A DNA stretch of 64,000 nucleotides, taken from contig OZ250186.1 in NCBI GenBank assembly GCA_965238275.1, positions 96,001 to 160,000 of the forward strand, read 5' to 3'. This document shows positions 13,070 to 46,969 of this stretch, one piece after another (position 1 is the first letter of the stretch; every line of letters begins with the position of its first letter). The position numbers and the translations under genes were made by a program. Below the pieces are notes generated by a model. It was not told the DNA's origin and did no database searches. It was given only the letters and a program-made list of their open reading frames with translations. This DNA comes from Nitrosopumilus sp. (GTDB taxonomy: Archaea > Thermoproteota > Nitrososphaeria > Nitrososphaerales > Nitrosopumilaceae).

Positions 13070-15013
13070 ATGGCTTTGGACGAAGATCTGCCCGCACCCA
13101 TACGGGATATCGCAGCAACCGACGCGAGGAGATTGCGCGTCATGGCCGGTCCCGGCACGGGCAAGTCATGGGCGCTCAAGGAACGCGTGAAGCGGCTGGT
13201 AGGGGAAGGACAGGATCCGTCTCGCATCTGGGCCGTCACGTTCACCCGCAACGCCGCCAAGGAGCTTGCCGACGATCTTGCCGACCCGGGAATCGTAGGT
13301 GGCAATCTCATACGGGTCAGCACGCTCCACTCATACTGCTTTGGCCTTTTGAGAGATCATGCGGCCCGTACCGGCCGCATCCCCCGCATAGTCATGAGGG
13401 TTTCATCGTTCAATCCCTTGGGGTTTGAGAGCGGCATGCTGGTAAGTGATCTGATCAACGAGAATCCGGAGTTTGGTGATGAAAAGAGATGCTCTGAACG
13501 CATAAAGAAGTTTGAGGCGGGCTGGGCGGAGATGGAATCAGACATGCTTGACGACCCGGTCAACCAGTCGCTTGAAAAGCGCCTGGGCGCATGGCTTGGT
13601 TTCCACAGGGCGATGCTCATGAATGAGCTCGTGCCGGAATCTTTGCGTTTTCTTCGCAACGGCAAGGCATCCGGCGCGCTTGCCGATTTTGATCACGTGA
13701 TAGTAGATGAGTACCAAGATTTGAACAAGGCAGATCAGGAGATTATCAATCTCGTATCAGGGAATGGATCCTTGACAATAGTGGGCGATGGCAACCAGTC
13801 AATCTATGGCTTCCGTCACGCGCATCCAAAAGGAATAGAAGATTTTCAAAACAGGTATCATGACGCGTGCAACGTGTCGCTTGCGGAATGTCAAAGGAGT
13901 CCGGTCCGGGTCGTGGAGATGGCCAACAACCTGATTGCCCTCAATCACCCGTCCGGCACGCCGCCCGGCTTGCGGCCCAAGCCTGGCAATCCTGATGGAG
14001 AAGTGCACACAGTCCGTTGGAACACAAGGGATGAAGAGGCAGAGGGCATAGCCAAATACGTAAGGCACCTGACAGACAGCCGCGCTTGCAGGCCAGAAGA
14101 CATACTGATCATGGCCCCGTGGAAAAAGCTGGGCCGCAAGATACATGACGCGGTAAGTGACCAAGGCGTCTCCGTGCACAACTTTGATCAGGACGTGCTG
14201 GCAAAAGACGCGGCACAGCGTGCATTCGCGCTGCTCACATTATTGGGCAACGGCGAAGACAGGGTGATGCTCAGGTGGTGGCTGGGGCATGATGATTCAG
14301 GACGACTCAACGGTCCATACCGAAAGCTTCGCGAGCATTGCGAAGCCAACGGCAAGTCGCCACGATCCGTTCTTGAGGACATGATGCATGGCAGAACGGT
14401 TTTGCCCGACGCGTCGCCCCTGCTGGCGCCGTTTGGGAATCTGGTTGGGGAGACTGACCGTCTGTCCAAACTGGGCCTGCGTGACTTGGTCGACGACCTG
14501 TTGCCAGAAGACAATGAAGACTGTGCGGTTTTGAGGAAGATTGCAGAACGCGCGCTTACAAACAGCGAAAGCGTCCAACAAATGTACGAGCGCGTATTGG
14601 AAGACGTCATCCAGCCCGAAGATCCAAGCGGCAATTCCGTGCACGTAATGACCATGCACAAAACCAAGGGCCTGTCCAGCAAGGTCGTAATTGTGGCCGG
14701 CTGTTGTGACGGACTGGTTCCTTACAGAAACAGCAGGCTTGCTGACGATGAACGCAGTGCCGCAATGCGCGAATCCCGCAGGCTGTTCTATGTTGCAATC
14801 ACTAGATGCAAGAAGATTCTTGTGCTTTCTTACTTTGCCGCCCTCAGCCCATCCGAATACTCCAATATGCGCATTCCGCTCAGAGGACAGGATCAAAGCA
14901 AACAACGATACTATACCCTGCCAAGCCCGTTCATAGGCGAACTGGGTCCGGACACTCCTTCTGCAATGGAGGGGAAGGCGTGGCAGGCTGCCAAGTATGC
15001 TGAACAGCCTTGA
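13070..15013 (+). CDS. UvrD/Rep-family SF1 helicase
   Basis: AGPGTGKS, TFTRNAA, STLHS, VDEYQD, GDGNQSIYGFR, MTMHKTKGL, ESRRLFYVAITR. Confidence 0.93.
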   Translation: MALDEDLPAPIRDIAATDARRLRVMAGPGTGKSWALKERVKRLVGEGQDPSRIWAVTFTRNAAKELADDLADPGIVGGNLIRVSTLHSYCFGLLRDHAARTGRIPRIVMRVSSFNPLGFESGMLVSDLINENPEFGDEKRCSERIKKFEAGWAEMESDMLDDPVNQSLEKRLGAWLGFHRAMLMNELVPESLRFLRNGKASGALADFDHVIVDEYQDLNKADQEIINLVSGNGSLTIVGDGNQSIYGFRHAHPKGIEDFQNRYHDACNVSLAECQRSPVRVVEMANNLIALNHPSGTPPGLRPKPGNPDGEVHTVRWNTRDEEAEGIAKYVRHLTDSRACRPEDILIMAPWKKLGRKIHDAVSDQGVSVHNFDQDVLAKDAAQRAFALLTLLGNGEDRVMLRWWLGHDDSGRLNGPYRKLREHCEANGKSPRSVLEDMMHGRTVLPDASPLLAPFGNLVGETDRLSKLGLRDLVDDLLPEDNEDCAVLRKIAERALTNSESVQQMYERVLEDVIQPEDPSGNSVHVMTMHKTKGLSSKVVIVAGCCDGLVPYRNSRLADDERSAAMRESRRLFYVAITRCKKILVLSYFAALSPSEYSNMRIPLRGQDQSKQRYYTLPSPFIGELGPDTPSAMEGKAWQAAKYAEQP

Positions 15014-19074: not shown

Positions 19075-19220
19075 GATGCACAATATGCGGTTCTGGTAAT
19101 AATCCTTGGGTTCTGTCGGTGGGAGGCAGACCCGGGTAAATTTTGGCAATCAGATCATGTGGTCGCCATGATTGAACGGAGCCGTTTTGTGGTGCGGTGG
19201 GGAACGGTTCCGTTGTTAAT

Positions 19221-19270
19221 AACGGTAAAAAACGGTTAGTAACGGTTAGTAACTGTTAACAACAGGTTAA
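19221..19270 (+). repeat. degenerate 10-bp tandem array, consensus AACGGTTAGT, 5 units
   Basis: AACGGTAAAA AACGGTTAGT AACGGTTAGT AACTGTTAAC AACAGGTTAA. Confidence 0.75.
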
Positions 19271-36809: not shown

Positions 36810-37250
36810 CGTAACAACTTGGAAAGACAGGCATGCAGACCGACCAGTCACTGATTCTCCAGCACGCACACCAGCGCCACGGCAAATTCGTCCATCGTGA
36901 CCTCTCCCTTGGCCGCCGGCGCATCCGGACGCGTCACCGCCAGACATGGGATGCACGGATAACATCCGTCAGACTCCTTGCCAGCAGGTCGTTTACGGCA
37001 TCAGAGAAGCTGTACGCCTTGTTGCCCTCCAGTATCTTCCTGGCCTGGTATTCCCTTATCCTGCGGTCCAGCCCGTCATCAACCAGGATTGTGGCACGTT
37101 TGGCCAATTCCTAGGCGCCCCCCGGCAGCACGTATTCCAGCATCGCGATAAACTTGTCCATGGTGACCTCTCCCTTGGCCGCCAGCGGCCCCAGCTCCGT
37201 CATCATCCAGCCCGGCATGTCGGCTCCGACGGGTTCAGTTTCCGCCAATC
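36810..37250 (-). pseudogene. transposase remnants (IS66-like) with an internal repeated fragment
   Basis: Two copies of GTCCAT(C/G)GTGACCTCTCCCTTGGCCGCC; homologous to 25505-25715. Confidence 0.5.
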
Positions 37251-40200
37251 TAGATGACGGCCTCGAAGGCATCCAATACCTGCATGGTCAGTATCGACCG
37301 GTTGGCATCCGACGTCCGGGCCACGATGTGGGTCAGATCCATGGCATCTGCAAACGTGATCCCAAACGTGATCACCTGCACGTTCCCGTCGGCGTCGATC
37401 GTGACTGCGGAGGATTCGACAAGATCGTGCGGATCGGTCACCGTGACGCTGCCCCGGTCGTACCTGACGTACGTGTCGCTGTCATAATATTGGTCGTCTG
37501 CACCGTGCAGGTTCAGGTACATAGTAAAGACTTCTATCGGCATGTCGCCATACACAGCAAAGCTGATGCTAGTCTCGTCCCCGACGCGCACTGTCTGCGG
37601 CTCGAGCGTGTTTCCGGTGCCAGTCAGCAGGTACCCGTAACCGTTTATCGATATGGGAAAGTCAAGCGCGCCGTCCATGATTATCGACGGGATGGGGGCG
37701 TTCGGGTCGTCAGCATAGTCGACGGGCTCGGGCGGGTGGATGCCCCACGCCCGCAGTATCCGGAGTTCGGACTCGTCAAAGTCGTCGGGATCCTGAAGTG
37801 TCATCTCGTCGGCCGGCGCGTCTAAAACGGCGGTCGCGGTGGTGGCAGATCCGGGATCCTCCAGGGATTCAGGCGCAGCGTGTCCGGGATACTCCCATGA
37901 CTCGATCGCCACAAAGTATTCCAAGGCGTTGACGAGCGTCTGCCTGTCCAGCGTGCCGTCTATGAACCACTTTGCGATATTCCTGAAGTAGTCGGGTACC
38001 GTCGTCCCCTGGAATCCGAACGCGCCCAGAAATTCCGCGTCATCGGCATATTCGGGGGAATAGCCGCCCCATGCCTTGAGTGTCTGGATTTCGGATGCGC
38101 CAAAGCCTCCCGCGGCGGGCTTCGGATCCGCCGTGATTTCTGCCGGTTCCGGTTCGGCGTCCGGTTCCGGCTCGACTGCCGGTTCTGTCAACGCCGTCGC
38201 CTCTGCCGGCATCGGCTCCGGCTCGACTGCCGCCTCCACCACCTCAAAGGCGTCGAGGACCTGCACCGTCAACAATGACAGGTCGGCGTTCCACAGCCGG
38301 GCCACCATGTTGGTCAGATCCATCTCGCCTGCAAACGTGATCTCAAACGTGATTACCTGCTTGTCCCCTCCGTCGGCCCGGATCGTGACTGTGGCAGACT
38401 CGATGAGACCGTGCGGGTCGACTATTTGGATGGTGCCGGCATCGTACCTGACGTAGGTGTCGCTGTCAGAATATTGGTCGTTTTCGCCGTGCAGGTTCAT
38501 GTACAGCGTAAAGTGCACTATCTGGACGCGGTCGTACACGGTAAATGAGATGGTGACGTTGTGTCCCGGGTGGATCGTCTGCGGCTCGAGCGTGTTCTTA
38601 ATGCCGCCAAGCAGGTACCCGTAGCCGTTTATCTCCAGGGGAAAGTCAAGGGAATCGTCTGCGGGCATGGGCGGGATGGGGGCGTCGGGATCGTGCGAAG
38701 TGGCGGTGTCTCGTATCTCCTGGGGGATCGACTGGAGGTACGATGCTATCGCGGAGTGGATGTCCAGTACCGGGACCGACGATTGCCGGGACTTGCTGGA
38801 TGAGGGATGGCTGACGGTTATGTTGTCGACTGTCCCAAGGGAATTGCCCGCAAGGTCCCGTATTCCAGAACCGGTGTATTCCAGGGTGAGCGCGGGCTTG
38901 CCGTCCGGGATGTCGCCGGAGAGGCCGAGCGTTATGGAGCTGCTGCCGGAGGGATCGGGGGCGTCGTCTACCGTTATGCTGTTGCCGCCATCGCCATCGC
39001 CGACGATGGATACTGACCAGTCAGCAGCGCCGGTGCTGCCGGTGACCCTCTCGGAGAACGACACCACGATTCCATCATTCCCGGACACCCGGGCAGACGA
39101 CACCGCCGGGTCAGTCAGGTCGACAGTCACGCTCGCGCTTGCGGCCCTAAACGTGTCGCCTTCCAGGGTGGTGACCGTGCGGGTCGGGATTGACACGGTC
39201 TGCCTGCCTTCTGAAAGGTTGTTCACGGTAACATCATACGAGGCAGCATTAGAGGACGGGGTTATGGCACCCACCGTTCCGCTGGTGGCGGTTACGGCAG
39301 AGACGAGCGTGCCGCGGTCAATGTCCCTGCCAAAGGAAAAGCCAAAGGATACAGTCTGGGAGTTTGTGACGGGAACGTCTGCGGTGATGTTGGCCGTAAG
39401 CGTTTGCGTGGGTATGCGGACCGTCACGGAGTCGGTGCCGGTGTTTTCCTCAGCACTGTTGTCAGTTACCGTGAGCCGGAAGGTCAGCGGGGTGGCAGAC
39501 GCCATTTCTGGCGTGAAGGTCGCGACTGCGCTGTTGACGTTGCTCAGGAATACCGTGCCTCCGCGGATCTGCTCCCACAAGTATGTCAGGGTGTCGCCGG
39601 GGTTTGGATCAAAGGAGGCAGAGCCGTCAAGGGTAACCGTTACGTCGGAGAGCGGGCGGTCCCTGACTGTCTGGTCGGGTCCGGCGCGCGCGACGGGACT
39701 GTTCCCGGTGGGCGGGGGAACGTCGTCTACCGTGATCGTGACGGTATCCGTGTCGGTGCCGCCGTTGCTGTCGTCTACGGTGAGGGTGAGCGTCACAGAG
39801 CCGCCTGACGTTTCCACGTCGGGTGCGGTAAACGTCGGGGACGCGGTGTTGGCGTTGTTCAGCGTAACTGACAGGCCGCCGGTTCGCGCCCACGAGTATG
39901 ACAGGGTGTCGCCGTCCGGATCAGAGGAGTCGGTGCCGTCAAGGGTGACCTGTTCCCCCTCGTTCACGGCCTGGTCGGGCCCGGCGTCCGCATTGGGGGC
40001 CTGGTTGGCGACCACGTTGTTTACCGTGATCGTGACGGTATCCGTGTCGGTGCCGCCGTTGCTGTCGTCTACGGTGAGGGTGAGCGTCACAGAGCCGCCT
40101 GACGTTTCCACGTCGGGTGCGGTAAACGTCGGGGACGCGGTGGTCGGACCGTTCAGGATGACTGGCAGGCCGCCGGTTCGCGCCCACGAGTATGACAGGG

Positions 40201-42727
40201 TGTCGTTGTCCGGATCAGAGGAACCGGTGCCGTCAAGGGTGACCTGTTCCCCCTCGCTCACGACCTGGTCGGGCCCGGCGTCGGCGTCGGGGGCCTGGTT
40301 GGCCTGGCCCGTCACGGTAATATCAAAGGCGGAGCTCAGCGCGTACTCGTTGACGTCGTTCCCGTCGGTTCCCGCCACGAACATCTTGTCGCCGTCAGAA
40401 GAAAACGCGAGGCCGACGGGGGAGGTATCCTGGTCACTGACTGAAAACGAGTCCGTAAAGTTGGCAGTGGTGATGCTAAAGGGAGTAGACAGCGCGTACT
40501 CGTTGACGTCGCTCCCGGTGGCTCCCACCACGAACATCTTGTCGCCGTCAGAAGAAAACGCGAGGCCGACGGGGGAGGTATCCTGGTCACTGACTGAAAA
40601 CGAGTCCGTAAAGTTGGCAGTGGTGATGCTAAAGGGAGTAGACAGCGCGTACTCGTTGACGTCGCTCCCGGTGGCTCCCACCACGAACATCTTGTCGCCG
40701 TCAGAAGAAAACGCGAGGCCGACGGGGGAGGTATCCTGGTCACTGACTGAAAACGAGTCCGTAAAGTTGGCAGTGGTGATGCTAAAGGGAGTAGACAGCG
40801 CGTACTCGTTGACGTCGCGCCCGAAGAGTCCCGCCACGAGCATCTTGTCGCCGTCAGAAGAAAACGCGAGGCCGGCGGGGAAGGTATCCTGGCCACTGAC
40901 TGAAAACGAGTCCGTAAAGTTGGCAGTGGTGATGCTAAAGGGAGTAGACAGCGCGTACTCGTTGACGTCGCTCCCGGTGGCTCCCACCACGAACATCTTG
41001 TCGCCGTCAGAAGAAAACGCGAGGCCTCGGGGGAGGTCATCTTGGGCACTGACTGAAAACGAGTCCGTGAATACTGCCGTAGAGACGTCAAAGGTGGCCG
41101 CAAACGCGGTGCCGGACGTGTCCTGGACTGCACCCGGATCGATCGTGAGTTCGGGAGTGGTCAGCGCGTTCACGGCGGCGAGTTTGGCAGTAGTCAGCGT
41201 AAAGGAAACGGTGGCCGAGCCCGAAGTGGTGCCAAGCTCCGCTGCAGACAGCGTGACGCCGCCGGTGGACGTGTTTTTCTCCCTTATGTGGAACTTTGTC
41301 GGGTCTATGTCCGTAGACGGCGTGGCGTCTATGATTTCGCTGAACGTTACCGCCAGCACGCCGGTGCCGCGGTCAAGCGTGGCAGAGACAAACGTGGGCG
41401 GCTGGTTGGCCTGGCCCGTCACGGTAATATCAAAGGCGGAGCTCAGCGCGTACTCGTTGACGTCGCGCCCGGTGGCTCCCACCACGAACATCTTGTCGCC
41501 GTCAGAAGAAAACGCGAGGCCGACGGGGGAGGTATCCTGGTCACTGACTGAAAACGAGTCCGTAAAGTTGGCAGTGGTGATGCTAAAGGGAGTAGACAGC
41601 GCGTACTCGTTGACGTCGCGCCCGGTGGCTCCCACCACGAACATCTTGTCGCCGTCAGAAGAAAACGCGAGGCCGACGGGGGAGGTATCCTGGTCACTGA
41701 CTGAAAACGAGTCCGTAAAGTTGGCAGTGGTGATGCTAAAGGGAGTAGACAGCGCGTACTCGTTGACGTCGCTCCCGGTGGCTCCCACCACGAACATCTT
41801 GTCGCCGTCAGAAGAAAACGCGAGGCCGACGGGGGAGGTATCCTGGTCACTGACTGAAAACGAGTCCGTAAAGTTGGCAGTGGTGATGCTAAAGGGAGTA
41901 GACAGCGCGTACTCGTTGACGTCGCGCCCGAAGAGTCCCGCCACGAGCATCTTGTCGCCGTCAGAAGAAAACGCGAGGCCGGCGGGGAAGGTATCCTGGC
42001 CACTGACTGAAAACGAGTCCGTAAAGTTGGCAGTGGTGATGCTAAAGGGAGTAGACAGCGCGTACTCGTTGACGTCGCTCCCGGTGGCTCCCACCACGAA
42101 CATCTTGTCGCCGTCAGAAGAAAACGCGAGGCCTCGGGGGAGGTCATCTTGGGCACTGACTGAAAACGAGTCCGTGAATACTGCCGTAGAGACGTCAAAG
42201 GTGGCCGCAAACGCGGTGCCGGACGTGTCCTGGACTGCACCCGGATCGATCGTGAGTTCGGGAGTGGTCAGCGCGTTCACGGCGGCGAGTTTGGCAGTAG
42301 TCAGCGTAAAGGAAACGGTGGCCGAGCCCGAAGTGGTGCCAAGCTCCGCTGCAGACAGCGTGACGCCGCCGGTGGACGTGTTTTTCTCCCTTATGTGGAA
42401 CTTTGTCGGGTCTATGTCCGTAGACGGCGTGGCGTCTATGATTTCGCTGAACGTTACCGCCAGCACGCCGGTGCCGCGGTCAAGCGTAGCAGAGGAGAAC
42501 GTGGGCGGCGTCTGGGCGTGCGCTTCCATTGGGTAGTCGATGAAGATTATGTCGGCTGCGAGGAATGCCACGGCCACGCATGCCAACGCGACATGCAGCC
42601 AAGCCCTGCGCCTGGTAGAAGATCCTCGTTCCGGATGGGTTGCTGCATAATTTTTATGCCGAAAACTGATATCATAATGGCTATTATGCACCGTAGTTTC
42701 GACGTTATAATGAATCCGGGCGCCCAA
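37250..42727 (-). CDS. giant secreted/surface protein: signal peptide, two beta-propeller modules, PKD/Ig-like domains, thaumarchaeal surface motif
   Basis: RRRAW plus a hydrophobic stretch and AHA cleavage site. 47-aa GLAFSSDG repeats; NQAP.ADAGPDQ domains; VPDYFRNIAKWFIDG motif. True start is probably at or near 42691, inside the inversion site. Confidence 0.9.
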   Translation of the reverse strand: MGARIHYNVETTVHNSHYDISFRHKNYAATHPERGSSTRRRAWLHVALACVAVAFLAADIIFIDYPMEAHAQTPPTFSSATLDRGTGVLAVTFSEIIDATPSTDIDPTKFHIREKNTSTGGVTLSAAELGTTSGSATVSFTLTTAKLAAVNALTTPELTIDPGAVQDTSGTAFAATFDVSTAVFTDSFSVSAQDDLPRGLAFSSDGDKMFVVGATGSDVNEYALSTPFSITTANFTDSFSVSGQDTFPAGLAFSSDGDKMLVAGLFGRDVNEYALSTPFSITTANFTDSFSVSDQDTSPVGLAFSSDGDKMFVVGATGSDVNEYALSTPFSITTANFTDSFSVSDQDTSPVGLAFSSDGDKMFVVGATGRDVNEYALSTPFSITTANFTDSFSVSDQDTSPVGLAFSSDGDKMFVVGATGRDVNEYALSSAFDITVTGQANQPPTFVSATLDRGTGVLAVTFSEIIDATPSTDIDPTKFHIREKNTSTGGVTLSAAELGTTSGSATVSFTLTTAKLAAVNALTTPELTIDPGAVQDTSGTAFAATFDVSTAVFTDSFSVSAQDDLPRGLAFSSDGDKMFVVGATGSDVNEYALSTPFSITTANFTDSFSVSGQDTFPAGLAFSSDGDKMLVAGLFGRDVNEYALSTPFSITTANFTDSFSVSDQDTSPVGLAFSSDGDKMFVVGATGSDVNEYALSTPFSITTANFTDSFSVSDQDTSPVGLAFSSDGDKMFVVGATGSDVNEYALSTPFSITTANFTDSFSVSDQDTSPVGLAFSSDGDKMFVAGTDGNDVNEYALSSAFDITVTGQANQAPDADAGPDQVVSEGEQVTLDGTGSSDPDNDTLSYSWARTGGLPVILNGPTTASPTFTAPDVETSGGSVTLTLTVDDSNGGTDTDTVTITVNNVVANQAPNADAGPDQAVNEGEQVTLDGTDSSDPDGDTLSYSWARTGGLSVTLNNANTASPTFTAPDVETSGGSVTLTLTVDDSNGGTDTDTVTITVDDVPPPTGNSPVARAGPDQTVRDRPLSDVTVTLDGSASFDPNPGDTLTYLWEQIRGGTVFLSNVNSAVATFTPEMASATPLTFRLTVTDNSAEENTGTDSVTVRIPTQTLTANITADVPVTNSQTVSFGFSFGRDIDRGTLVSAVTATSGTVGAITPSSNAASYDVTVNNLSEGRQTVSIPTRTVTTLEGDTFRAASASVTVDLTDPAVSSARVSGNDGIVVSFSERVTGSTGAADWSVSIVGDGDGGNSITVDDAPDPSGSSSITLGLSGDIPDGKPALTLEYTGSGIRDLAGNSLGTVDNITVSHPSSSKSRQSSVPVLDIHSAIASYLQSIPQEIRDTATSHDPDAPIPPMPADDSLDFPLEINGYGYLLGGIKNTLEPQTIHPGHNVTISFTVYDRVQIVHFTLYMNLHGENDQYSDSDTYVRYDAGTIQIVDPHGLIESATVTIRADGGDKQVITFEITFAGEMDLTNMVARLWNADLSLLTVQVLDAFEVVEAAVEPEPMPAEATALTEPAVEPEPDAEPEPAEITADPKPAAGGFGASEIQTLKAWGGYSPEYADDAEFLGAFGFQGTTVPDYFRNIAKWFIDGTLDRQTLVNALEYFVAIESWEYPGHAAPESLEDPGSATTATAVLDAPADEMTLQDPDDFDESELRILRAWGIHPPEPVDYADDPNAPIPSIIMDGALDFPISINGYGYLLTGTGNTLEPQTVRVGDETSISFAVYGDMPIEVFTMYLNLHGADDQYYDSDTYVRYDRGSVTVTDPHDLVESSAVTIDADGNVQVITFGITFADAMDLTHIVARTSDANRSILTMQVLDAFEAVI
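39729..40300 (-). repeat. two near-identical PKD-like domain units, 294-bp period
   Basis: GGTTCGCGCCCACGAGTATGACAGGG at 39881 and 40175. Confidence 0.9.
40295..42500 (-). repeat. 1107-bp tandem duplication, each unit with five 141-bp blade repeats
   Basis: Identical shadow ORFs offset by 1107 bp; blade repeats are nearly identical at DNA level. Confidence 0.95.
42661..42700. other. putative recombination site, left
   Basis: GAAAACTGATAT-CATAA-TGGCTA-TTATG-CACCGTAGTTTC: dyad arms around an asymmetric 6-bp spacer. 31/40 identical to the reverse complement of 42828-42867. Confidence 0.75.
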
Positions 42728-42800
42728 AATGCCAAAGAACCGGTCATTTTTGCCATATTTGGGGCCTCAAGGCACCATTTTAGGATGTTTTTTATCACAT

Positions 42801-42839
42801 TATTAATATATATGAGTAACATTAAATGAAATCACGTTG
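42801..42839 (+). promoter_or_regulatory. TATA box and TTG start inside the putative invertible segment
   Basis: TATTAATATATATG at 42801-42814, about 30 nt upstream of TTG 42837, which is archaeal leaderless spacing. Confidence 0.6.
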
Positions 42840-42867
42840 CGTAATAGCCATTATGCAGTCACATTTC
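42828..42867. other. putative recombination site, right, inverted relative to the left site
   Basis: GAAATCACGTTG-CGTAA-TAGCCA-TTATG-CAGTCACATTTC. Spacer TAGCCA is the reverse complement of TGGCTA. Confidence 0.75.
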
Positions 42868-42917
42868 GTGATATTGTTACAAACATGGCGCGTTTGGGGG
42901 CAGGCAGGCACCTTGCA

Positions 42918-43003
42918 GGGCAGGTTTGGGGCAGGTTTGGGGCAGGTTTGGGGCAGGTTTGGGGCAGGTTTGGGGCAGGTTTGGGGCAGGTTTGGGGCAG
43001 TTT
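42918..43003 (+). repeat. 11-bp tandem repeat GGGGCAGGTTT, about 8 units
   Basis: Six perfect units plus shortened first and last units. Confidence 0.95.
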
Positions 43004-43074
43004 CGGGCCCGGCACCCGGCGCGCCGGGGCACCGGTTTTGATGCGGATTAAATATCTAAAGCAGGTTATGGATA

Positions 43075-44616
43075 GTGATGGGCAGCTGCTATAAGATGCT
43101 GCGCCCCGTGAATGATGACGATTTGGACAAGGCGGATCCAGACGTCGCCACGATCCTGAAGAAACTGCCGCCCGAGGGCCACCTGGACGCGAGCCGGATG
43201 GAACCACGCGGCCGCGACGCGCTTGCGTGGGCGTGTTCCCGCGGCATAATGCGCAGGACAGACTCCGGGGACTGCATGATGAGATTCGAGAGCGTGAAAT
43301 TCTGGATCGCGCAGCTCAACTCGCCGGGCGCCAAGAACATCCGCATCCGCAGGGGCACCAGGCAGTCATACGCGGCCGCGCTCGGGACCTTTGACGAGTG
43401 GTTGCGGGGCCGGAAATTCCCGGTAACGCGGGACGGTGCCGGAGGAGGAGGAGATGGAAAGGCAGGGAATGCGGAGGCGTCATTTTCTGACGTGGGGGAG
43501 ATGCTGCGCTTCTGCCAGAATTCCATCCACGGCGCCCGCGCCGCAAAGCGCGTCGTGCGGGAGTACCTTGCCCACCTTGCGTCTGCCGGATATTCCAAGT
43601 CCACCGCGACGGTGCGCTGCTCTGCGATAAAGTCGTACTTTGCGGTGCACGACGTGCCAGTCGACGTGAAGGTGGGCAAATTCAGGTACGCCCAGGACAA
43701 CGGGAACCCCGAGCTGAGCCTGTCGGACTTTTACAAGATGGTGTATTCGGGAAGCATGGGCCCCATGATGAGGGCCATAACGCTGGTAAAGTTCCAGGCC
43801 GGGCTGGATTCCTCGACGCTTGCCGACCGCTTCAACTTCGAGGCGTACCCCCAGATAGTGAGGCACTTTGGCGTGGAGGACTATGACTCCTGGGACCTGG
43901 ACAAGTGCCCGGTCCCGATAAAACTGACAAGGCTGAAGACCGGCATGCCGTACACCACCTTCATAGACCGCGATGCCGTGTCGCAGCTGCGGGACTACCT
44001 GAGGTGGAAGGAGTCCAGGCACGGCAAGCACGACGGGACGGGGCCGCTGTTCGTGACGCGGCGCGGCACGCCGGTCAGCCCGATCTGGATATCGGTCCGC
44101 TTCTCCAAGGCCGCATCAGACGCGGGCGTGCAAAAAAAGTTCTCGCGCGGCTACTACAGGGTGCGCGCCCACGAGGTGCGCGACCTGTTAAAGTCGACGC
44201 TGGTGGCCGCCGGGTGCGCGCAGTACGCCGCAGACCACGTGCTCGGGCACGCCCCCAAGGACTCCTACGAGAAGCAGGCCACGCTGTACCCCGAGGCGCT
44301 CAGGCGGGAATACTCCAAGGCGTCGGGGTACCTCAACGTGTTTACCAGTTTTGAGAGGTACCTGGAGATGGTGTCGGGCCCGCCGCGGGAAGGTGCTGGC
44401 GGCGGCGGCGGCGGCGGCGGCGGCCAGCCTGCCACAATGCAGCAGCAGCAGCAGCAGCAGCAGCCGCAGGACGCGCAGGCCGCATTCCAGGGGATGGCCT
44501 CTGCCATGTCAGGCATGGCCAGGATAATGCTGCAAAGTCCGGACGTGCCAGACGATCTTGCGCGCGTGCTCAGGGACCTGGAAGGCATCGGGGGACGGGA
44601 CGGCAAACAAGGATGA
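43075..44616 (+). CDS. tyrosine recombinase/integrase
   Basis: SAM-like domain (YSKSTA...AIKSYF), RLKTG, GPLFVT, RAHEVR, LGH and DSY. Box I reads QAGLDSST rather than TGxRxxE. Poly-G/poly-Q tail. Alternative start at 43096. Confidence 0.88.
   Translation: MMGSCYKMLRPVNDDDLDKADPDVATILKKLPPEGHLDASRMEPRGRDALAWACSRGIMRRTDSGDCMMRFESVKFWIAQLNSPGAKNIRIRRGTRQSYAAALGTFDEWLRGRKFPVTRDGAGGGGDGKAGNAEASFSDVGEMLRFCQNSIHGARAAKRVVREYLAHLASAGYSKSTATVRCSAIKSYFAVHDVPVDVKVGKFRYAQDNGNPELSLSDFYKMVYSGSMGPMMRAITLVKFQAGLDSSTLADRFNFEAYPQIVRHFGVEDYDSWDLDKCPVPIKLTRLKTGMPYTTFIDRDAVSQLRDYLRWKESRHGKHDGTGPLFVTRRGTPVSPIWISVRFSKAASDAGVQKKFSRGYYRVRAHEVRDLLKSTLVAAGCAQYAADHVLGHAPKDSYEKQATLYPEALRREYSKASGYLNVFTSFERYLEMVSGPPREGAGGGGGGGGGQPATMQQQQQQQQPQDAQAAFQGMASAMSGMARIMLQSPDVPDDLARVLRDLEGIGGRDGKQG
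44398..44463 (+). repeat. GGC and CAG trinucleotide runs encoding poly-Gly and poly-Gln
   Basis: A GGC run followed by a CAG run in the recombinase tail. Confidence 0.9.
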
Positions 44617-45058: not shown

Positions 45059-45581
45059 GCCGTAATTCCAGATTTCATGTCCCACACATTTTACGAAATT
45101 TTGGCAGATTTAAACATGACACGTCACCGCGGCGGCATGGTGCTGTGGCAGGCCTAGTAAATCGACAGTGCCGGAGAGTTTCGCGTCCGGCTCCAAATTC
45201 CGCCTATCTCCGGACGTCATGGGGCAGGCGCACGGGCGTTGCGCGCCGCTTGTCGTCATGGCACCGGCCGCGTGCAGGCATTTCTCTGCGGGTTCAAGGG
45301 GCTGTCCGTGACGGGACGTCCGGCAGACGATATGAGACCGCCCCTTCAGGCGCGACGTGGGCACGCATGTACATGGGGCGCAAGCTGTAAAATTTCCAAA
45401 ACGACTAACGTCATGCTGGCTTGACCCGCATGTAACGACGACCTGGCCATAATTGTTTAAAAACTGCAAGCCCGTGTGGTACGCAATGACCGCAACCTTG
45501 CCGGATCCGGCTGCCAAAATTATAAAAAACTCCGTGAAAAAACAGTGGAAAAACTACGTTTAAACCAAAGGAATGCCAGGA

Positions 45582-46397: not shown

Positions 46398-46969
46398 TCC
46401 AAAGCGGGCTTTTGTGAAATGTATATTTCTTTTCGTTTTTTTCCGGATTTTTTCTAAAATCGGCAGCCGGATCCGGCACGGTTGCAGTCATCGTATCACA
46501 GTTGCTCCGAGGATCTAAAACGTTGGGCGATTGAACCGCGGCAACCTGTCCGATCTTTCCAGCGGTAATTCGCTGCTGGAATCCAGACGCCTTTATGAAT
46601 GCAAATTTGGAAGGCATTGGCTCTGGCATGCCATGCAAGCCACCTCCGCAGCGGTACCAAGTTCGTGCCGTTTCAGGCCATGGCAAGCCACATTCCAAGA
46701 CAATATCCCTGCGACAAATTTTATCGTAAAAACCCTTCAGCGACTTGATGACGTACAGGGATTACAACGCCACGACTCCCGCGGATCCACGTGCTGGAAT
46801 ACATGGTGCGGCTCTTTTTTTTTTCAAAAAACTTTGGCAATCCCTCAGGCACGCACCTGATCTTTTTGTACGCCTATGAGTTCCTCCCGTTTTGTTTGAT
46901 CCATGTCGCATCAAAAAACCTACATGGCTTGGTTTGGCCGGTTCAATTTGAAGGAATTTTTTCGTGCCG

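Follow-up and report, generated by a model that had tools for sequence, protein, structure and literature searches.

A copy-number-variable G-rich 11-bp repeat between a giant surface-protein gene and a tyrosine recombinase gene in a Nitrosopumilus genome

The stretch of DNA analysed here, called the window, is 64,000 nucleotides (nt) long and comes from Nitrosopumilus sp. (assembly GCA_965238275.1, contig OZ250186.1, positions 96,001 to 160,000 of the forward strand); positions are those of the window unless a locus is named. The host genome is complete (2,216,668 bases, 52.7% G+C) and encodes both an archaeal AmoA (386 bits) and an archaeal small-subunit (SSU) rRNA, therefore the host is an ammonia-oxidising archaeon. 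The subject of this work is a G-rich tandem repeat with a period of 11 bp, located in a spacer of roughly 500 nt from which a giant surface-protein gene (minus strand) and a tyrosine recombinase gene (plus strand) diverge. The features of the locus, including an open reading frame (ORF) that crosses the repeat, are the following.

37250 to 42691, minus strand: giant surface-protein gene, oriented away from the recombinase gene and coding for PKD-like, Ig-like and beta-propeller-like repeats (ORF and family matches).
42655 to 42700, minus strand: left arm of an inverted repeat, containing a 20-bp site (42671-90) and the GTG (42691) where the giant gene probably begins.
42803 to 42813, plus strand: TTAATATATAT, a TATA-like element (TATATA) in the segment between the arms, about 30 nt before TTG 42837 (sequence and spacing).
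42828 to 42873, plus strand: right arm of the inverted repeat, containing a palindromic site of 20 bp, TGCGTAATAGCCATTATGCA, at 42838-57, and the TTG at which the ORF opens.
42837 to 43094, plus strand: ORF of 85 codons, from TTG to TAA, crossing the array (from the ORF list; judged not to be a gene).
42899 to 42910, plus strand: GGCAGGCAGGCA, remnant of a microsatellite, (GGCA)3, on the 5' side of the array at a distance of 7 nt; the repeat probably grew from it (from its sequence).
42917 to 43004, plus strand: the 11-bp tandem array (TRF: period 11, 8.4 copies, 97% matches); the strand rich in G has the same sense as the recombinase gene.
43048 to 43055, plus strand: TTAAATAT, probable TATA box for the recombinase, 30 nt ahead of ATG 43078 (spacing in the paralogue P2; genome-wide TATA peak).
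43078 to 44616, plus strand: tyrosine recombinase/integrase gene, 512 amino acids (aa) from ATG 43078 (weak family matches and fold; start by homology).

A previous reading of this DNA, made from the letters alone (the sequence-only reading), had described about eight copies of a G-rich 11-bp unit, and this description holds: the array consists of an imperfect unit AGGGCAGGTTT (42917), six perfect units GGGGCAGGTTT (starts from 42928 to 42983, through 42993) and a degenerate unit GGGGCAGTTTC (42994), and it lies 70-160 nt upstream of the recombinase start. The 11-mer GGGGCAGGTTT has no second site in the genome. When arrays with a period of 4-40 and at least four copies were collected genome-wide, their periods were mostly multiples of three; only 11 arrays were otherwise, and among those the GGGGCAGGTTT array scores highest. 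The array itself exceeds chance expectation.

The number of units was then compared with that found in natural samples. Four sequencing runs from two studies carry parts of the locus, in Logan contigs that we take to have been built with k=31. In one of these runs, X1, a 226-nt contig with a depth of 11.8 joins 42917 to 42984, omitting 66 nt, that is six units; the flanks have a depth of 11.4-11.9, and apart from the missing units this allele is identical to the assembly over 42833-43500. Of the 196 31-mers in the contig 13 are absent from the assembly, and if k was indeed 31 the contig is therefore a real 2-unit allele and not a collapse of the 8-unit form. The copy number of the tract is polymorphic between natural samples, with eight units in the assembly and two in X1 and with unchanged flanks; the sequence-only reading had asked whether repeat number varies, and between samples it is not invariant. 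Concerning X3, a run of the second study, a contig of 41 nt falls entirely inside the perfect repeat; this length is that of a k=31 cyclic unitig with an 11-nt period, in which case the allele would have about three perfect units or more. The depth of X1 inside the array (26.8 in the bin 42956-42996) could correspond to longer alleles or to unrelated low-complexity contigs. A short head-to-tail unit in the 5' region together with a between-sample difference in copy number in the same flanks is the pattern of contingency-type tracts. We also observed that a contig of a further run, X2, matches the promoter and start of the recombinase gene (43027-43089) with five differences and carries unrelated sequence upstream of 43027; a related recombinase gene without the array therefore exists in another sample.

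The units inside the array are perfect and those at its ends are decayed, which is the pattern that slippage would give. The reading that we consider reasonably probable is that of a slippage-prone minisatellite in non-coding DNA, crossed by an incidental ORF. The tract would be a young and lineage-specific 11-bp minisatellite, which replication slippage would make grow and shrink, and it would lie between an outward copy of the promoter and start codon of the surface-protein gene on one side and, on the other, the TATA box of a recombinase gene presumably expressed from a leaderless mRNA starting at ATG 43078. We also judge it rather probable that the tract has no consequence under selection. 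No DNA match for the intergenic DNA was found in any of 40 relatives or in any of 150 genomes of the genus, and a search of metagenome and genome collections with a 22-mer returned only unrelated bacterial hairpin-like contexts, in two metagenome and five genome stretches.

Besides the (GGCA)3 remnant close to the array, microsatellites of the CAGG/CCTG type of at least 16 nt are present at eight other loci of the genome, and CAGG-derived arrays with periods of 10, 11 and 12 are present as well; the tract looks to have derived from a CAGG-type microsatellite. The genome contains seven recombinase paralogues, the window gene being one of them, and the closest to it is P2 (59% identity). The P2 locus is a paralogous island, in which the surface-protein genes share 70-80% DNA identity with the giant gene and have, relative to the recombinase gene, the orientation opposite to that of the window locus. 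The spacer between the P2 recombinase and the surface-protein gene contains (CCTG)6 followed by copies of the 11-nt unit TGCCTGCCTGA, the whole being scored by TRF as 3.7 copies, and this CCTGCC array with an 11-nt period lies just past the stop codon of the P2 recombinase. In the same island (CCTG)n is found upstream of both large surface-protein genes (L043:11067-11112 and 13682-13697), and the first of these tracts is the one that continues into the TGCCTGCCTGA copies.

The sequence-only reading had also attributed G-quadruplex (G4) potential to the array, and here the sequence lends it support. The array is the sole motif in the genome with four runs of at least four G and loops of at most 7 nt, its G4Hunter score is 2.0 in a 25-nt window, 1.84 in 50 nt and 1.78 in 80 nt, and the last value makes it the top 80-nt window genome-wide. 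It also follows the usual sequence rule for a quadruplex (at least four runs of at least three G, loops of 1-7 nt, high G4Hunter score). As far as prediction goes, the tract is the strongest G-quadruplex candidate in the genome.

Should the tract have an effect, the one with the best support, although unlikely, would be that of a G-rich non-template tract or spacer of variable length between the promoter of the segment flanked by the inverted repeat (the cassette) and that of the recombinase gene. Transcripts started at the TATA-like element of 42803-13 would then meet the tract, a G4 or an R-loop would attenuate their read-through, and the number of repeats would set the strength of this tunable barrier. 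The genome-wide rank of the G-runs and of the G4Hunter score speaks for such a barrier, and so does the fact that rightward transcription would have the G-rich strand as its non-template strand; moreover TATATA is found 30 nt before 42837, in agreement with the spacing seen genome-wide, and nothing else resembling a terminator is present between the two promoters. In the 2-unit allele only a long-loop set of G-runs remains, so that alleles would differ in strength, and G4-forming repeats of variable length are known in bacteria (PMC4692102). However the tract is conserved in none of the relatives examined (the 40 relatives and the 150 genomes of the genus), the same promoter is found in P2 but no such tract lies upstream of it, and a neutral repeat of the same composition would score equally. 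A tunable transcription barrier at this site appears, on balance, improbable.

It should be considered that several points weigh against a neutral minisatellite. The population data consist entirely of k-mer contigs and not of reads. The 8-unit and the 2-unit alleles both leave the ORF in frame, ending at 43092-94, which has a chance of one in three. The strongest G4 candidate of the genome occupies precisely the space that separates a candidate invertible promoter cassette from the recombinase gene, a place that is odd for a neutral repeat and in this sense suggestive. Two of the three arrays in the genome with period 11 and at least three copies adjoin the two closest recombinase paralogues, P1 and P2; they share the core CCTGCC/GGCAGG and both lie between a recombinase gene and surface-protein genes, an arrangement which fits common descent from a spacer microsatellite but could also hint at function. 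Finally, a consensus scan gave no terminator-like signal between 42837 and 43078, and an insulating GC hairpin at 42995-43045 was discarded as it folds no better than shuffled sequences (z 0.29); with neither a terminator nor a stable hairpin, read-through to the recombinase gene is therefore possible.

The other element to which the sequence-only reading had given importance is the ORF that crosses the tract. It is true that TTG 42837 opens an ORF of 85 codons stopping at TAA 43092-94, and that ATG 43096-98, in the recombinase frame, follows one base past this TAA. Concerning the stops that a gain or loss of units would bring into frame, the one ending at 43041 (TGA 43039-41) is correct, while the one ending at 43059 is not: the other shifted frame stops at TAA 43049-51, and TAA 43057-59 shares its frame with TGA 43039-41 and is never reached. 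The 11-bp unit is free of stops in all six frames and 11 is not a multiple of three, so that every frame is open across the tract, and overlapping ORFs of 71, 118 and 51 aa traverse it in other frames. The 85-codon ORF is therefore automatic and not beyond chance. It gave no match in a Pfam search, and at the leader position of P2 no ORF was found. Its first 13 codons mirror the start of the giant gene (MRNSHYAVTFRD and MHNSHYDISFRH), because TTG 42837 and GTG 42691 occupy mirror positions of the 46-nt inverted repeat. On these sequence features the ORF is most likely an incidental by-product of the repeat rather than a functioning means of control.

The position of the recombinase start is relevant for the same question, since the sequence-only reading had placed it at ATG 43096 and had proposed a translational coupling with the ORF. 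For the N-terminal alignment we used 68 of the 150 listed family members plus the window protein (69 rows), and the N-terminal segment is present in 53 of the 69. Of these 53 rows, 38 have three to six residues ahead of a conserved aromatic position (Y in 42 of 53). The column of Met7, encoded by ATG 43096, contains V in 37 rows, I in 6, M in 4 and L in 2, and V, I or L together account for 45 of the 53; a start at this codon would drop the conserved Tyr located two codons earlier. P2 has a GTG at the codon aligned with ATG 43078 and an Ile at that aligned with 43096, and TAAATAT occurs 29 nt ahead of the start in both the window recombinase and P2; the paralogues P3, P4, P6 and P7 have TTTTAA 27 nt ahead of their ATG. 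Genome-wide, TATA-like hexamers are found at -31 to -27 of the first ATG in 13% of 1132 long ORFs, while at other offsets the frequency is mostly 0-0.7%, with isolated values of 1.1-1.9% at -37, -32 and -19; this peak indicates that leaderless transcription is common in the genome. TTAAAT at 43048 is at -30 of ATG 43078. It is thus very likely that TTAAATA at 43048 is the recombinase's own promoter, as had been suggested, given the -30 spacing, the genome-wide peak and the likeness to P2, and from homology and promoter geometry the recombinase most likely starts at ATG 43078, on a leaderless mRNA produced from its own TATA box. The gene start of this integrase, neighbour of the tract, is corrected in this way.

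With the start at 43078, the leader TAA falls 14-17 nt inside the recombinase coding sequence, and the observation of a stop one base before the start loses its point. The proposed coupling was that a leaderless TTG ORF would be translated, that ribosomes would re-initiate on the recombinase after TAA 43092-94, and that gain or loss of units would shift the frame and in this way tune switching. An ORF, a stop and nearby in-frame ATGs do exist (ATG 43078 is 14 nt upstream of the stop and ATG 43096 is 1 nt downstream), the two alleles share their frame, and a TATA-like element is at -30 of TTG 42837. However the recombinase has a leaderless promoter of its own and a start that precedes the leader stop, so the coupling to ATG 43096 is not borne out; besides, the ORF is open by construction, it has neither family match nor conservation, and P2 is without such a leader. 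UUG is moreover a poor start on leaderless mRNAs. What defines leader coupling is missing here, as TAA 43092-94 is inside the recombinase gene and the ORF shows no coding signal or conservation, and we regard coupling as very unlikely. Known leader peptides and upstream ORFs working by termination and re-initiation are similar in that an upstream ORF ends close to the start codons of the next gene; they differ in that here the downstream gene is served by a leaderless promoter of its own and its start codon precedes the upstream stop, and the ORF lacks conservation and owes its open frame to the repeat unit.

An upstream ORF of another kind was observed in the closest orthologue, from genome G017 (L018:1440-1503). 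In this gene a G-rich insertion of about 44 nt follows the third codon of the conserved N-terminus (MGI) and makes an upstream ORF of 15 codons; the TGA of this ORF and the ATG with which the remaining recombinase opens overlap (ATGA). Either the gene is frameshifted or the short ORF is a genuine small leader.

The recombinase belongs to a family of 483 members at E <=0.001 among 1.84 billion representative proteins. Its structure model has a pLDDT of 89.4 and in Foldseek matches XerA, lambda Int, IntI, XerH, Tn1549 Int and Cre, with a probability of 1.00 for XerA, lambda Int, IntI, XerH and Cre; judged by its modelled fold, the protein is a true tyrosine recombinase. When solved structures were searched by sequence, neither the protein nor a 6-row profile found a recombinase. 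Residues H365, R368, H391 and Y397 are conserved in 59-60 of the 69 aligned rows, and the remaining rows mostly have gaps. To place the first catalytic Arg we relied on TGLRxSE, which we take to be the canonical box I motif. At the expected position (43798-43809, residues 241-244) we observed Asp244, and Asp is present in 60 of the 61 rows with a residue there; three residues before this position an Arg is found in 42 of 62 rows, while the window protein and its paralogues have Ala241 (FQAGLD). An extra N-terminal domain, residues 1-61, is modelled with high confidence. Elsewhere the family sits at the borders of integrated elements, beside housekeeping genes, a location in agreement with what is described in this phylum for integrases of cryptic integrated elements (PMC6563490).

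A tandem repeat next to an integrase gene may also be read as an array of protein-binding sites, in which 11-mers, one per helical turn, would act as arm-type sites of the integrase or as operators for a regulator of the divergent promoters. The direct repeats do adjoin the gene, the extra N-terminal domain is modelled in the recombinase, and two paralogues also have arrays, one in P6 (33-nt unit, 3.2 copies) directly upstream of the TATA box and the 11-nt-period CCTGCC array just past the stop codon of P2; the use of arm sites is described for lambda Int (PMC8371274). However, only two of 24 places encoding a homologue have an array within 200 nt upstream, copy numbers of 2 and 8 in otherwise identical DNA are unlike a fixed set of sites, and the 11-mer occurs nowhere else in the genome, hence there is no second arm. 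Family searches of the recombinase, moreover, matched no arm-binding family. Arm sites and iterons recur in related elements and in a fixed number, and the tract does neither, so that from its sequence a binding array appears quite unlikely. The P6 array (L013:2649-2754) was noted in its own right: it ends at the TATA box and lies between the recombinase gene and a divergent gene with an ArsR-type helix-turn-helix (HTH).

On the other side of the tract lies the inverted repeat. Its arms are 46 nt long, 76% complementary and 127 nt apart, and contain a perfect 14-bp core that genome-wide is present only in these two arms. Each arm bears a 20-bp near-palindrome (42671-90 and 42838-57), and TTG 42837 and GTG 42691 of the giant gene are at mirror positions. 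In the assembled orientation the TATA-like element of 42803-13 points towards the array and the recombinase gene; such an element at -30 exists only at the right-hand copy, GC-rich DNA being found at the -30 of the giant gene. The exact pattern TGCRTAA-N6-TTAYGCA has two sites in the genome, 42838 and the start of the P2 surface-protein gene, while three control patterns gave no match in the genome with 0-1 mismatch. Among the 150 genomes of the genus the pattern has single matches in four, about the expectation as estimated by hand. The 25 nt around GTG 42691 are the same as those at the P2 surface-gene start at 20 of 25 positions, but this likeness is borderline (score 25, shuffle maximum 26). 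Beyond the repeat arms no homology above that of shuffled sequences was found, and a multi-copy miniature inverted-repeat transposable element (MITE) was rejected, as no other copy is present in the genome.

Inverted repeats that bracket a promoter-like element, with a recombinase gene adjacent, are what characterises an inverton, and the arrangement would look like an inverton in the OFF orientation; a dead inverted duplication would also look like this. We looked for a strand-changing joint, the mark of inversion, in the contigs of the four runs and found none, although k-mer contigs drop rare forms. That the inverted repeat is a working switch is a tentative proposal, somewhat short of an even chance. 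It is plausible, considering the sequence, that the upstream TATA-like element sends a transcript into the tract. The complete scenario, a fim-like switch in which the OFF promoter fires through a variable G4 tract acting as an evolvable attenuator of recombinase feedback, and so of the switching rate, would be very hard to credit. Nevertheless the inverted repeat with mirrored start codons is a more interesting feature than the tract. A separate observation concerns X1, in which two contig variants of equal length (depth 6.3 and 5.6) cover 42752-42862 and differ at seven positions between 42782 and 42832; the differences fall in the portion of the cassette that is AT-rich and promoter-like, the flanks do not differ, and the variants resemble two haplotypes in one sample.

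The invertible promoter fimS, which controls type 1 fimbriae in E. coli and has tyrosine recombinase genes adjacent to it, is the closest term of comparison for this arrangement. The two are similar in having inverted repeats around a short promoter-bearing segment, beside tyrosine recombinase and surface-protein genes. In the window, however, the arms are 76% alike with a perfect core of 14 bp, the recombinase family is otherwise found at the edges of integrated elements, and no inverted form was seen; the fim switch, in turn, includes no repeat tract. Putative archaeal invertons were reported in a study where, as far as its available text goes, 12 cases in 42 genomes all belong to Euryarchaeota and Crenarchaeota and none comes from ammonia oxidisers (PMC10028968).

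The giant gene contains two near-identical blocks (40337-41068 and 41444-42175), each with 4.8 copies of a 153-nt repeat, and this is a segmental duplication of about 1.1 kb. In Neisseria a G4 upstream of pilE promotes recombination, and by analogy transcription through the tract might form a quadruplex and lead to breaks that would drive inversion of the cassette or rearrangement of the giant gene. The candidate G4 and the start of the surface-protein gene, which has large internal duplications, are separated by about 230 nt, and a promoter-like element reads into the candidate G4. However the idea is purely analogical and the run contigs examined contain no rearrangement or inversion, and we think it hardly likely at all.

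Regarding the surroundings, the giant gene and the recombinase gene are inside a stretch of about 60% G+C (approximately 36.9-45.3 kb of the window), and the region of the window that contains this stretch has several transposase genes (IS66, rve and DDE families). A direct repeat of the 11-bp unit at the edges of this high-GC island, as an att duplication would leave, was looked for and not found. An RNA-family search of 42300-43400 gave as sole match a chance-level snoRNA inside the recombinase gene (E 0.9). Two further repeats were observed in the window. One is an intergenic short-period array at 19215-19270, with about 5.5 copies of a 10-nt unit resembling GTTAATAACG; the other is an inverted repeat of 56 nt (80%) at 45486-45541 and 46436-46491, and the 894 nt between its arms hold a 171-aa ORF without family match and a small HTH_20 gene.

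The tract can be compared with other prokaryotic repeats. The GGGNATC repeats of Xanthomonas and Nostoc are described as intergenic 7-mers that follow the G4 rule, are present at many loci in 2-26 copies, are shared by related strains and are under-represented between divergent genes (PMC4692102). Our tract is similar as a short, non-coding, G-rich tandem unit that follows the G4 rule and has variable copies (2 and 8 here), but it is a single-locus archaeal 11-mer between divergent genes, with no counterpart in the 150 genomes of the genus, where the repeats of that report, in the part available, are at many loci (PMC4692102). In archaea, short G-rich tandem repeats idiosyncratic to single organisms have been reported, such as (GGGCT)n in a Nitrosocosmicus strain (PMC8044849). 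The likeness is in the G4 pattern and in the restriction to one organism and not its close relatives; on the other hand that survey, judging from its accessible portion, set the repeats aside without context, whereas the tract described here is polymorphic and lies between two promoter-like elements (PMC8044849).

A third comparison is offered by the repeat tracts in the 5' region of phase-variable surface genes of bacteria. Examples are the 7-bp repeats before hmw1A/hmw2A of Haemophilus influenzae and the TAAA tract upstream of nadA in Neisseria meningitidis. These too are tandem repeats between or upstream of promoter elements, with a length that changes by slippage; in those systems, however, a surface gene is controlled and graded expression was measured, whereas here the nearest downstream gene is an integrase and the case is known from sequence. 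A literature search returned no repeat-based or inversion-based phase variation for ammonia-oxidising archaea, although supplementary tables of the cited papers might list cases.

The tract is a further unstable G-rich repeat in prokaryotic intergenic DNA, useful as an archaeal case with length variation at the population level. Its interest is modest unless the switch proves real, and it would matter more if it were true that the tract modulates transcription from the cassette to the integrase gene. With two sites, one promoter, one recombinase and one repeat, the locus is a compact test case.

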